Assembly (NCBI GenBank): GCA_002366755.1 | Contig: DFBV01000018.1 | Span: forward strand, 15,508 to 64,134 | Direction: 5' to 3' | Source of the DNA: Anaerolineales bacterium UBA3071 | GTDB lineage: Bacteria > Chloroflexota > Anaerolineae > UBA3071 | Length of the DNA stretch: 48,627 nucleotides | Shown: positions 17,502 through 26,386 of the stretch, piece by piece | Layout: every line of letters starts with the position of its first letter | How positions within the stretch are numbered: position 1 is the first letter of the stretch | Notes under the pieces: generated by a model | Seen by the model: the letters and a program-made list of their open reading frames with translations, nothing else | What the model was told of the DNA's origin: nothing | Database searches by the model: none | Made by a program: the position numbers and the translations under genes

Positions 17502-18500
17502 TCAGCACACTGCTGGCTCGTCGATGCTAAAGAGATTGTTGCGAGCATCCAGCGTAGCCAGCACCCCGTTCGGCATCGTCAATCTGGGGTTGAGATGCCC
17601 ACAATCAACATTCATCAAAATGGGAAAGGAATAGGGCAGCGTGTGTTCAAGGATGACATCTTCCAATGTCTGGGTTGTGGTGGGCTCCTCATCGATGAGG
17701 CAGTGACCTACAATCATGCCGGCGATCTCACCGAGAACGCCGATTTCTCGCGCATGGGTCAGGAAACGGTCTACCCATCGGAGTGAACCGCCTAGCTCTT
17801 CCCAAAACCAAATCTTTTGCTTGAAGGTTGGCCAGTAGGGAGTCCCAGCAAGCAGCAGAGTGGATCCTAGATGGCCGCCGATGAGGCGACCTTGGGCATA
17901 ACCAGGCTTGAGCCAGCGCCAGCCAGGGTGTGGTTCCATGGAGTCTCTGTTGACGCTTTCGTCGTACTGAACGCTTCGCATGATTTGGGCCGGTGGAGAA
18001 AGGGGCCCCAGTGGTTCAACATGCCCACAGATATGGTAGAAGTGGTTGATCGTATAAGGGTAAGGTGCAATCCCCCATTGGCCGATCAGATTGGGACCAT
18101 CGAAAGTAACCAGTCCAGTATGCACATGAATGGCGAGGTTCAGTACAGTGATGTCACTATGCCCACAAAACACCTTAGGATTGTACTGGATCGTGTCCCA
18201 GTTCAGAAAGGGGAGTAGCCGATTGCTGTTGGTGCCACCCAAGATGCCTATAATGCCCTTGACTGTGAGATCGGCAAAAAAGCGGTTGATGTCTTGTGCG
18301 CGGTCACAGTCGTGCCCAGCAAGATAGCCTATGCGGTTTGTGGCATGCTCGCCCACTTTGACCTTAAACCCTTGCGCTTCAAGGGCCTGGATCCCGCGTT
18401 CTAGAGCATCCAGGCCCCGCCCTGTCACAGGAAAGGATGGGCTGACGAGCCCGATCGTGTCTCTAGGTTCAAGGTGAGGAGGCTTGATTGAGGTTGACAC
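17502..18500 (-). CDS. S66-family serine peptidase (LD-carboxypeptidase / MccF-like)
   Basis: IGLVSPS..., GYLAGHD.DRA.D, GILGG, nucleophile motif FCGHSDITVL. GTG start 1 nt after the upstream stop, with a GAAGGAG SD. Confidence 0.8.
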   Translation of the reverse strand: MSTSIKPPHLEPRDTIGLVSPSFPVTGRGLDALERGIQALEAQGFKVKVGEHATNRIGYLAGHDCDRAQDINRFFADLTVKGIIGILGGTNSNRLLPFLNWDTIQYNPKVFCGHSDITVLNLAIHVHTGLVTFDGPNLIGQWGIAPYPYTINHFYHICGHVEPLGPLSPPAQIMRSVQYDESVNRDSMEPHPGWRWLKPGYAQGRLIGGHLGSTLLLAGTPYWPTFKQKIWFWEELGGSLRWVDRFLTHAREIGVLGEIAGMIVGHCLIDEEPTTTQTLEDVILEHTLPYSFPILMNVDCGHLNPRLTMPNGVLATLDARNNLFSIDEPAVC

Positions 18501-18501
18501 G

Positions 18502-25759: not shown

Positions 25760-26104
25760 TCAGTCGCAATAATAGTCATCCTCGCAGTCCCACTGCCAAG
25801 GTGGCCCGTGGCCAGTGAGATACCGATGGCATGTCTTCTGGTAAGTGCAGCCAAAGATGGGCGTGCCATTGCGGTTCACGAAGAGCTGTCGGTCGGGGTC
25901 GTAGTGGCCATCAAGAACCAACGGCTCTGCCTCACTTGTCTGAGCGAACAGCATGCCGAAGGGGACTTCTTCCCCATTCCAATTCAATCGGGTGCAGTTG
26001 CTCTCAGTTACCAGCACAGATGTTCTAGAAAAAGTGCCTTCTACTGCTGGATTTCGCGTAGATTCTCCGCACGAATCTGCCCAAAATCCGGCAAGACAGT
26101 GCAT
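25760..26104 (-). CDS. Candidate RiPP precursor peptide ending ...GCTYQKTCHRYLTGHGPPWQWDCEDDYYCD
   Basis: Only ORF directly upstream of and co-oriented with the ATP-grasp gene. C-terminus is rich in T/K and D/E, with 4 Cys. Start uncertain (ATG 26104 or internal ATG 25954). Confidence 0.55.
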   Translation of the reverse strand: MHCLAGFWADSCGESTRNPAVEGTFSRTSVLVTESNCTRLNWNGEEVPFGMLFAQTSEAEPLVLDGHYDPDRQLFVNRNGTPIFGCTYQKTCHRYLTGHGPPWQWDCEDDYYCD

Positions 26105-26386
26105 TTTGCTCCGGACACTTGCGAGAATTCACCCGAAAAGCCATGGCAGCTGGGGTGAATTCCTAGCAGGTAACCAGGAGCATCTGCACCCAATTCAATC
26201 GGCTATACATCGTTTTCCTCCTTCGTGATAGGTTGAGTAGTACTCACGCTGACCAACGAAGAACTTGGTACTCCAGATTGCCGCTTCGATCACCCCCTTT
26301 CTAGATGCTTGTACTAGAACTACCCAATTTGCCTGCCACCGACTATTGAGAGTTTGAACGAGTCGGCCAGGCGGACGATGGGACGG

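Follow-up and report, generated by a model that had tools for sequence, protein, structure and literature searches.

Organization of the Cluster

We analyzed a 48,627-nt stretch of contig DFBV01000018.1 from Anaerolineales bacterium UBA3071 (the window, by which we mean this whole stretch), whose minus strand carries a compact cluster in which genes of the kind that make graspetides, a class of peptides that are made by ribosomes and modified after translation (RiPPs), are joined to a gene for a derivative of adenylosuccinate synthetase (PurA). The cluster is read on the minus strand, on which all of its features given below lie. Behind a small precursor gene we found five enzyme open reading frames (ORFs), which encode a putative ATP-grasp macrocyclase of the MvdD/MdnC-like type (350 aa; 24584..25636), an ABC exporter (613 aa; 22741..24582), a putative PurA-derived ligase (426 aa; 21427..22707; hereafter PurA-like), a tri-domain HAD-kinase-nucleotidyltransferase fusion (968 aa; 18502..21408) and an MccF-like S66 serine hydrolase (332 aa; 17502..18500). 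All five are intact, the 968-codon ORF included, and in transcription order they are separated by gaps of 1, 33, 18 and 1 nt, the exporter starting with an ATG 1 nt past the ATP-grasp stop and the hydrolase with a GTG 1 nt past the fusion stop.

A previous sequence-only reading of this DNA had listed these genes with their coordinates and strand, and had described them as tightly packed (1–33 nt gaps) and lower in GC than their surroundings. All of its ORFs were confirmed in the sequence, as was the packing, and profile searches with Pfam and NCBIfam models bore out each of its domain calls. The GC content of the cluster is 51–55% compared with 60–69% in the flanks, and GC content at third codon positions (GC3) agrees with this contrast. 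Because the GC3 of the cluster genes, uniformly low at 0.58–0.64, is far below the 0.80–0.85 of the MacB/HlyD genes downstream, the operon block looks acquired and is compositionally foreign.

The PurA-like Enzyme Is Altered at the Aspartate Site

The PurA-like protein (Pfam Adenylsucc_synt) is collinear from end to end with E. coli PurA (1ade; E = 2e-99), and it passes the PurA equivalog cutoffs of both NF002223 (467.7, cutoff 402) and TIGR00184 (441.8, cutoff 395.55). Its IMP and GTP residues are intact: the GDEGKGK P-loop, D13, K16, N38, H41, T129, R143, Q224, T239 and the TKLD guanine motif are all retained. The L-aspartate pocket is rewired. The aspartate loop of E. coli PurA, GATTGRRRRTGW, reads RHTTDIPLRVGW in the PurA-like protein (GATTGRRRR to RHTTDIPLR), TTGRGIGP has become TTGWGIGP and NAGHT has become NACHT, so that in E. 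coli numbering the substitutions are G40C, R131W, G298R, G302D, R303I, R304P and R305L. R303 and loop 298–305 contact the aspartate substrate, according to PMC8342488, which cites Wang et al. (1995). The top Protein Data Bank (PDB) match of the protein was the 1cg4 sequence, which itself has Leu at the R303 position. The divergence previously claimed for this PurA copy was thus located more narrowly, in that the protein is not globally divergent, since it passes the equivalog cutoffs, and its divergence is real but concentrated at the aspartate site.

Eight relatives at 76–50% identity emerged when 5.8 billion clustered proteins were searched. Below them, ordinary PurAs of many phyla formed a plateau at about 45%, and among the 120 best matches the altered aspartate loop occurred only in the query and in those eight. 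We compared nine members of this clade with 112 canonical PurAs, including that of E. coli, and scored a position as conserved if it was shared by at least 90% of the canonical sequences. The clade kept 98 of the 152 conserved positions, among them every GTP and IMP residue, and had systematically replaced 27, nine of which are 100% invariant in canonical PurA (G40, Y137, D231, T234, G274, G298, G302, R303 and R305). At the aspartate-site positions, canonical conservation is 93–100%, and each of the nine clade members has other residues there. The clade lies on a long stem, and its monophyly is supported by 100/100 neighbor-joining bootstraps.

It is also very rare, with about 10 known members. 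Among 185,579 species-representative genomes we found canonical PurAs only, no relative above 47% identity and no clade member, the source genome not being among the matches, and a DNA pattern for the rewired loop retrieved a single 1.3-kb contig (L058) from the metagenome contigs of the Joint Genome Institute (JGI). Plasmid and phage records likewise held canonical relatives only, those from phages being at most 42% identical. The protein does not score as the phage paralog PurZ (NF038379, 102.8, cutoff 300), and no DatZ or MazZ was found in the cluster.

The ratio of nonsynonymous to synonymous substitution rates (dN/dS) of the PurA-like gene is 0.145 between the window and the related locus L007, and 0.20 between L007 and a second related locus, L060; being under purifying selection, the gene is maintained and not decaying. 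Taken together, these data support the view that the PurA copy is a paralog neofunctionalized at its amine-substrate site. Since the IMP and GTP residues are kept and the aspartate residues lost, the enzyme is predicted to place a different amine on purine C6.

A different explanation of the same changes would be self-resistance: the cluster product would inhibit the aspartate site of adenylosuccinate synthetase, as does hadacidin, which is competitive with aspartate (PMC6136348), and the PurA-like protein would be an inhibitor-insensitive spare. The passed equivalog cutoffs and the retention of all GTP/IMP catalytic residues would suit such a spare, as would the clustering of the changes where aspartate-competitive inhibitors bind. 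However, R303, R305, G298 and G302, invariant in the 112 canonical PurAs, are removed rather than adjusted, which should cripple the housekeeping reaction; moreover, clade members sit in quite different clusters (LanB, S26 and APRT contexts, described below), and nothing suggests PurA as a graspetide target. We consider self-resistance very unlikely.

One clade member, P0126 (L060 1281-2534), has also lost conserved PurA residues, with W11I, T128A, G130R and NTGHI in place of NAxHT. Its dN/dS is about 0.2, and it may be drifting to another specificity or to inactivation.

The S66 Hydrolase Resembles MccF

The last gene of the cluster encodes a protein with the Pfam S66 N- and C-terminal domains. 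Against the PDB it matched MccF end to end (1.5e-44 for B. anthracis, 1e-36 for E. coli) and LdcA with values of 6e-22 to 5e-14, some LdcA structures matching only in two separate stretches. The residues of its predicted catalytic triad align with those of MccF, namely Ser in GHSD, Glu in FWEE and His in DCGH, and the LdcA equivalog NF008424 was not reached (101.3 bits, cutoff 378). One source names an S66 homolog muramoyltetrapeptide carboxypeptidase. By these comparisons the hydrolase is closer to MccF than to LdcA, which upholds the previous assignment to an MccF/LdcA-type peptidase and places the protein on the MccF side. We predict it to be a maturase or an immunity enzyme.

A Graspetide Core of Precursor, ATP-Grasp Enzyme, and Exporter

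The ATP-grasp protein contains the MvdD pre-ATP-grasp domain PF21068 (44 bits, cutoff 27), and its best PDB matches were MdnB/MdnC (5ig8/5ig9; 1e-47). It matched TIGR04187 at 269 bits (E = 4e-80), under the cutoff of 350, and TIGR04184 at E = 1e-64, and it is thus placed by its sequence in the broad family, within no named NCBIfam subfamily. Its dN/dS relative to L007 is 0.14.

The exporter is a fused permease and ATPase (ABC_tran) in which we detected no C39 peptidase domain with Pfam or NCBIfam, and its ATG at 24582 agrees with a 613-aa gene call in L004, an independent Logan assembly. It is 76% identical to its counterpart in L007, 39% identical to the exporter of L005, a graspetide cluster that lacks PurA-like, and 33% identical to that of L010, a distant PurA-like locus. 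Because its next-closest relative among the compared loci is thus the one from PurA-less L005 and not the one from L010, we assign the exporter to the graspetide part of the cluster. Precursor, MdnB/C-like ATP-grasp enzyme and ABC exporter together have the composition of a graspetide core, as the sequence-only reading had proposed from their layout.

The Precursor Gene Is Interrupted by a Small Inserted Element

Upstream of the ATP-grasp gene, a small ORF rich in Cys and acidic residues had been noted before. The ORF is there, and it proved to be part of the gene for a graspetide precursor, which an insertion of 198 bp has split; the previous reading had overlooked this interruption. The ancestral start of the gene (26190..26222) consists of the Shine-Dalgarno sequence GGAGG (26217-26221), an ATG at 26210 and codons 1–7 (MYSRLNW), within which lies the first copy (26190-26202) of a 13-bp direct repeat, CCGATTGAATTGG. 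The insertion (25992..26189) is MITE-like (resembling a miniature inverted-repeat transposable element); its terminal inverted repeats are imperfect and about 21–24 bp long (GTGCAGaTGCTC...GTTACC), and the 13-bp direct repeats lie on either side. The rest of the gene, comprising leader and core, occupies 25760..25991 and begins with the second repeat copy (25979-25991); the leader reads NGEEVPFGMLFAQ...LDGHYDPDRQLFVNRNGTPIFG and the core CTYQKTCHRYLTGHGPPWQWDCEDDYYCD.

The element and one repeat add 211 bp, which is not a multiple of 3, and the frame is broken after codon 7. Excising them restores a 79-aa ORF, with which the 78-aa precursors found in L001 and L007 align collinearly. In L001, whose ATP-grasp enzyme is 76% identical to that of the window, the 78-aa gene lies just upstream of the ATP-grasp gene (MSSRLFDWNREEIPFGMSFAE...DGHYDPDRQLFVNPNGTPIFG...DFDVD), with the same Shine-Dalgarno/ATG context and a similar N-terminus (MSSRLFDW...), and the same gene is found in L007. 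The leader motifs are also common to the precursor of L005/L006. The 198-bp element itself is present in L004 as well; it is single-copy in the window, and the compared loci yielded no further copy. It has an internal self-complementary stretch (positions 8–83, 74%), and the 13-bp flanking repeat is unusually long.

An in-frame ATG at 26104, within the insertion and with GGAG 4 nt upstream, opens a 114-aa ORF that keeps the core and nearly the whole leader. This ORF gave a weak match to the precursor model TIGR04186 GRASP_targ (E = 0.002; 18.1 bits, under the cutoff of 25), and gene callers predict no gene at the split precursor. Peptide production in this genome would therefore either be abolished or rely on the ATG at 26104, and expression appears possible.

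That the cluster in this genome is a decaying relic, its precursor interrupted and its function lost, would fit the frame break after codon 7 and the silence of the gene callers, as well as a deletion of about 2.87 kb in sister lineages (see below) and the loss of several conserved PurA residues in P0126. We regard this as improbable, in view of the five intact enzyme ORFs, 968 codons among them, of dN/dS values of 0.14–0.24 across lineages, and of the ATG with GGAG inside the insertion, which preserves leader and core. A relic would in any case concern present activity only and not the nature of the system.

Between the precursor and the ATP-grasp gene lies a stem-loop with a 16-bp stem (25658..25692; -32.5 kcal/mol, z = -4.5), which is maintained by compensatory changes across three sequences, those of the window, L001 and L007. 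The sequence-only reading had called it an attenuator hairpin. The hairpin stands; the attenuator label does not extend to a known type, since an Rfam scan found no family anywhere in the window and the cluster hairpins are consequently not known riboswitches or attenuators. The stem-loop is probably a partial terminator or a transcript-stabilizing element.

Relatives Keep the Two Halves Joined

The link between the graspetide genes and the nucleotide-related genes had previously rested on spacing, and the question of whether the PurA paralog and the S66 gene are linked to an ATP-grasp maturase in relatives had been raised. They are so linked in L007/L008, where the PurA-like protein is 75% identical to that of the window and the genes run response regulator, solute-binding protein (SBP), 78-aa precursor, ATP-grasp, ABC, PurA-like, S66. 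The P0126 lineage (PurA-like 66% identical) has ABC, PurA-like and S66, the hydrolase again directly following PurA-like. Between the window and L007, all four enzymes had dN/dS values of 0.135–0.145 at dS values of 0.65–1.1, and between L007 and L060, two lineages without the fusion, dN/dS was 0.18–0.24. The gene order has thus been kept, in L007/L008 and the P0126 lineage, under purifying selection. A terminator separating the halves, at 22707-22741, was also looked for computationally, and the 33-nt spacer between the ABC and PurA-like genes held no terminator-like site and no structure (z = +0.7). These observations support, at the level of sequence, a conserved junction rather than a local accident.

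Alternatively, the genes could be chance neighbors: in a compact genome, a purA with a housekeeping role, an LdcA for murein recycling and a fusion resembling aminoglycoside-resistance enzymes would by accident lie behind a graspetide cluster. In favor of this view, all of these are common gene families, the PurA-like protein would be called adenylosuccinate synthase by NCBIfam, and one source gives the S66 homolog the carboxypeptidase name cited above. The view is largely refuted, and we rate it the least probable of the alternatives considered here: the PurA-like clade stands apart from the plateau of ordinary PurAs at about 45%, with its aspartate site rewired and no relative above 47% in the species-representative genomes; the hydrolase does far better against MccF than against LdcA, at 101 bits to an LdcA cutoff of 378; and the order is kept in three lineages, with uniform GC3, coupled starts and stops, and a terminator hairpin only after S66.

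The Tri-Domain Fusion Was Lost in Sister Lineages

The fusion combines HAD_2/Hydrolase (~20686-21408), an APH-type kinase (~19453-20433) and Adenyl_transf, an ANT(6)-like nucleotidyltransferase (~18526-19350), according to Pfam and NCBIfam. We could read in it the HAD motifs FDLGG, VVTNT, KPH and GDRxxED, the kinase motifs HGDFRPDN and DFD, and the nucleotidyltransferase motif GSS...DID. It matched only the generic Pfam APH and Adenyl_transf models and fell below the equivalog cutoffs (ANT_6, 46 vs. 420; aadS, 37.9 vs. 450), while its HAD domain resembles the nucleotidases YjjG and pyrimidine 5′-nucleotidases. No full-length relative was found, a HMMER search of 1.84 billion representatives giving single-domain relatives only and a word-indexed search giving only the protein itself.

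The fusion is absent from L007 and the P0126 lineage, and a recent insertion in the window was considered as an explanation; it was ruled out by a deletion scar in L007 (10265-10323) and L008 (3844-3905), of which a shorter remnant is left in L060 (2535-2563). After the PurA-like stop, the L007/L008 scar holds the Shine-Dalgarno sequence of the fusion, a GTG at its start position, 11 codons (VFCVVLLDLDG; MFSAVLFDLGG, HAD motif I, in the window) and two more codons, and it ends in the same TAA-C-GTG-TCAACC junction into S66. Its ungapped identity to the window fusion is 37/53 (P = 3e-9). In the window, HAD motif I has become DLGG through loss of the second Asp, and the L007 remnant has it in the canonical form DLDG. 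Since P0123–P0126 are also sister to the window PurA-like protein in the tree (89/100), scar and tree placement together indicate that the fusion was ancestral and that a single deletion removed about 2.87 kb. After this loss, the other cluster genes stayed under purifying selection (L007 vs. L060). Because sister lineages deleted the fusion and kept the rest of the cluster, we classify it, on sequence evidence, as an ancestral but dispensable accessory and not as core. The sequence-only reading had counted it as part of the distinctive combination of genes; with no full-length relative, and deleted in L007, L008 and L060, it does not belong to the conserved core.

Surroundings of the Distant Clade Members

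The more distant clade members lie in other contexts. The gene of P0127 (56% identity; L009 6946-10867 and L010 792-6981) and a small S26 peptidase gene overlap by 14 nt, with MauE, a redoxin and a Cys-rich 86-aa ORF (8 Cys) upstream and an ABC exporter downstream, and the locus looks like one for a disulfide-rich secreted peptide without an ATP-grasp gene. The clade member of L012 adjoins an S26 peptidase as well, and that of L059 occurs with a redoxin gene. P0128 (51% identity; L011 1-21299) lies in a block with a LanB-type dehydratase, a methyltransferase, a PMT_2 glycosyltransferase, an NHL/SGL-repeat protein, a GT4 glycosyltransferase, an S9 peptidase and an ABC exporter, with transposase genes interspersed. 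On L058 (267-1275), a C-terminal PurA-like fragment with the loop FRHTDHTPLRVGW is followed directly by an adenine-phosphoribosyltransferase-like (APRT-like) gene, which suggests that at least some clade members work in purine-base or nucleotide interconversion. No small peptide genes shared among the distant clade loci were found. A peptide-related role for the clade is favored mainly because a peptidase recurs beside PurA-like in five lineages, S66 in three and S26 in two.

These surroundings bear on the possibility that two pathways share one operon, such that PurA-like, S66 and, ancestrally, the fusion would make or detoxify a small N6-substituted purine nucleotide or nucleoside that is co-regulated and perhaps co-exported with the graspetide but not covalently attached to it. 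We hold this to be possible though doubtful. It would account for the pairing of the L058 clade member with an APRT-like phosphoribosyltransferase, for a PurA-like protein without a peptide-recognition domain and for a HAD domain that resembles YjjG and the pyrimidine 5′-nucleotidases; in addition, the PurA-less relative shows that a graspetide core works without the module, and small aminoacyl-nucleotides are also cleaved by MccF-type enzymes (PMC9239234). It sits less well with the peptidases, exporters and RiPP genes that recur near clade members, with the position of PurA-like and S66 inside a graspetide operon that has no internal terminator, and with a cluster in which no dedicated small-amine precursor gene is visible.

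Operon Boundaries and Neighboring Genes

Strong hairpins occur within the operon only after the precursor and after S66. The latter (17441..17479; -35.5 kcal/mol, z = -3.4) lies about 20 nt past the S66 stop, has a counterpart in L007 (z = -2.4) and is the likely operon end. Upstream of the precursor, the neighboring gene (26387..29140) encodes a 917-aa lipoprotein-type solute-binding protein (Pfam SBP_bac_1), and the position is syntenic, SBPs of 896–897 aa being found upstream of the precursor in L001, L007 and L004. Its GC3 of 0.64 is near the cluster value. The SBP gene is possibly in the same transcription unit, and there is no sign that it takes part in the chemistry. Just upstream of it, at 29454-29426 (minus strand), lies the best promoter-like site of the region (TTGACA-17-TAGAAT with extended TG; 11 of 12 matches), from which transcription of the operon may begin, and at 29274-29231 on the same strand there is a very strong terminator-like hairpin of the preceding gene, with a 20-bp stem followed by a T-run. 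The operon would accordingly extend over about 17.4–26.2 kb, possibly to 29.4 kb.

Directly downstream of the cluster is a MacB-type efflux set (10242-17501, minus strand) comprising an HlyD-like adaptor, a 999-aa FtsX/MacB permease and two ABC ATPases. Because its GC3 (0.78–0.85) is much higher than that of the cluster, the set looks native and outside the island. On the other side, a radical-SAM/SPASM gene (35634-36761, minus strand) lies among four paralogous SBP_bac_1 lipoprotein genes whose products are unusually large at 857–917 aa (26387-29140, 29608-32184, 32639-35299 and 36866-39439), and it may be part of a second peptide-modification locus. A role of the region in anti-phage defence was considered and dropped, as PADLOC gave only generic ABC ATPase matches in the window.

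Proposed Pathway

We interpret the cluster, with moderate confidence, as a graspetide pathway operon equipped with a nucleotide-ligase/amidase accessory module. In such a pathway, the precursor core would be cyclized by the MdnC-like ATP-grasp enzyme through side-chain ester or amide bonds, and the ABC transporter would export the product. The PurA-like enzyme would form 6-phosphoryl-IMP with GTP and transfer the purine C6 to an amine other than that of aspartate; one of the amino groups on the modified peptide could serve here, or else a small co-substrate, and an N6-substituted AMP would result. The S66 enzyme is predicted to cut the amide next to the nucleotide/amino-acid junction, for maturation or for self-protection of the producer, and the fusion, where present, would probably edit phosphate or nucleotidyl groups on the product.

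Several observations weigh against this interpretation. At 66–76% identity, the lineages with the full cluster are rather closely related, such that synteny could in part be inherited without functional coupling. L005/L006, whose ATP-grasp enzyme is 50% identical to that of the window and of which L005 is the nearest graspetide relative on a long contig, have precursor, ATP-grasp and ABC genes and neither PurA-like nor S66, and the 99-aa and 319-aa genes of L005 showed no similarity to S66, the fusion or PurA-like; the module would thus be an add-on that the graspetide does not need. The distant clade contexts are short contigs, several of them with transposase fragments, and the APRT-like neighbor on L058 fits small-molecule purine metabolism as well as it does peptide chemistry. 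As for the PurA-like protein, its passing of the equivalog cutoffs makes residual aspartate activity compatible with the sequence, and Pfam revealed no extra domain in it such as a RiPP recognition element, which tempers the idea that it acts directly on a peptide still bearing its leader. Finally, the precursor gene of the window is disrupted by the insertion.

Going beyond the operon interpretation, we tentatively suggest, as a possibility we judge rather unlikely, that the rewired clade represents a RiPP tailoring, GTP-dependent "purinyl ligase" that joins IMP C6 to a peptide amine, for which the MccF-like S66 enzyme (S26 elsewhere) would be the matching peptidase, acting in processing or immunity. 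In the graspetide branch, the amine could be supplied by the side chain of a Lys, by the N-terminus exposed once the leader is removed, or, on a C-terminal Asp anchored by its side chain, by the alpha-amine. The last of these allows a speculative sequence of events in which the ATP-grasp enzyme would anchor the C-terminal Asp by its side chain, S66 would cut the main chain and so free the Asp alpha-amine, and the PurA-like enzyme, without the carboxylate-binding arginines, would then build a peptide-tethered adenylosuccinate-like group. This variant stays conjecture because a C-terminal Asp is not specific to PurA-bearing clusters.

The C-terminal Asp of the precursor had itself been put forward by the sequence-only reading as a pointer to a nucleotide product, and we discarded it as evidence for nucleotide attachment. 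PurA chemistry requires a free amine, which a C-terminal residue does not offer, and the precursor of the PurA-less, S66-less cluster L005/L006 likewise ends in Asp, which makes the pointer weak.

Comparison With Known Systems

Graspetides form a rapidly expanding class of RiPPs, and the tailoring known for them is limited. With the microviridins (MdnB/MdnC), CdnC and the TIGR04187 "SAV_5884" group with its TIGR04186 precursors, the window cluster shares the MvdD-type ATP-grasp enzyme with its pre-ATP-grasp domain, the adjacent precursor with the leader motifs PFGM.F and YDP..Q..V and a core rich in Thr/Lys plus Asp/Glu, the stem-loop after the precursor, and the coupled ABC exporter. It differs in that both the ATP-grasp enzyme (269 vs. 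350) and the precursor (18 vs. 25) score below the NCBIfam subfamily cutoffs, and in that the precursor is split. In a limited literature search, we found no described graspetide cluster with a PurA-derived enzyme or an S66/MccF hydrolase, and no PurA-type enzyme in a RiPP or other biosynthetic gene cluster (BGC).

Few enzymes of central metabolism are as conserved as PurA, and to our knowledge PurZ is so far its only well-described neofunctionalized relative. The full-length homology of the PurA-like protein to E. coli PurA (1ade) and its GTP/IMP residues lead us to expect the same activation of a 6-oxopurine nucleotide, whereas the aspartate loop 298–305, R131 and G40 differ. PurZ, the phage PurA paralog, keeps aspartate as substrate, according to PMC8342488, whereas the window clade replaces the aspartate site. 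The context also departs from both PurA and PurZ, consisting of peptide natural-product genes and not of purine metabolism or phage DNA modification. A PurA offshoot found with peptide-maturation, peptidase and export genes is thus a testable candidate for new purine C–N bond chemistry, and may hint at peptides decorated with nucleotides, as a new family, or at N6-substituted adenylate antimetabolites. As curated equivalog models label the clade proteins adenylosuccinate synthase, genome mining based on annotation would miss them.

The fusion shares its domains, and the kinase HGDxxxxN/DFD and nucleotidyltransferase GS...DxD motifs, with the ANT(6)/APH aminoglycoside and lincosamide enzymes and with HAD nucleotidases such as YjjG and YihX, but it scores far below every equivalog cutoff, and its three-domain architecture is unique among the 1.84 billion representatives searched.

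In microcin C, MccB modifies the C-terminal Asn of the precursor. The microcin C operon (MccA, MccB, MccC, MccE, MccF) contains the same set of components as the window cluster, that is, a ribosomal peptide, an export pump, an MccF-family S66 enzyme and a nucleotide-handling enzyme, and no precedent other than microcin C is known for conjugates of ribosomal peptides with nucleotides (PMC9239234). Because Pfam and NCBIfam revealed no MccB/ThiF-type adenylyltransferase domain in any cluster protein, the window cluster is not a microcin-C-type system, and the analogy is functional only. MccA is a heptapeptide ending in Asn, whereas the window precursor has 79 aa, a leader and a terminal Asp; microcin C carries a phosphoramidate to the 5′-phosphate, whereas a C6–N bond to the purine base is predicted here; and its pump is of the MFS type, whereas the window has an ABC exporter. 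The sequence-only reading, which had suggested a peptide-nucleotide, Trojan-horse-like product, was supported in part. If the purinyl ligase suggestion were true, a peptide-N6-AMP conjugate would add to microcin C a second route, of unrelated chemistry, by which hybrids of ribosomal peptides and nucleotides arise.

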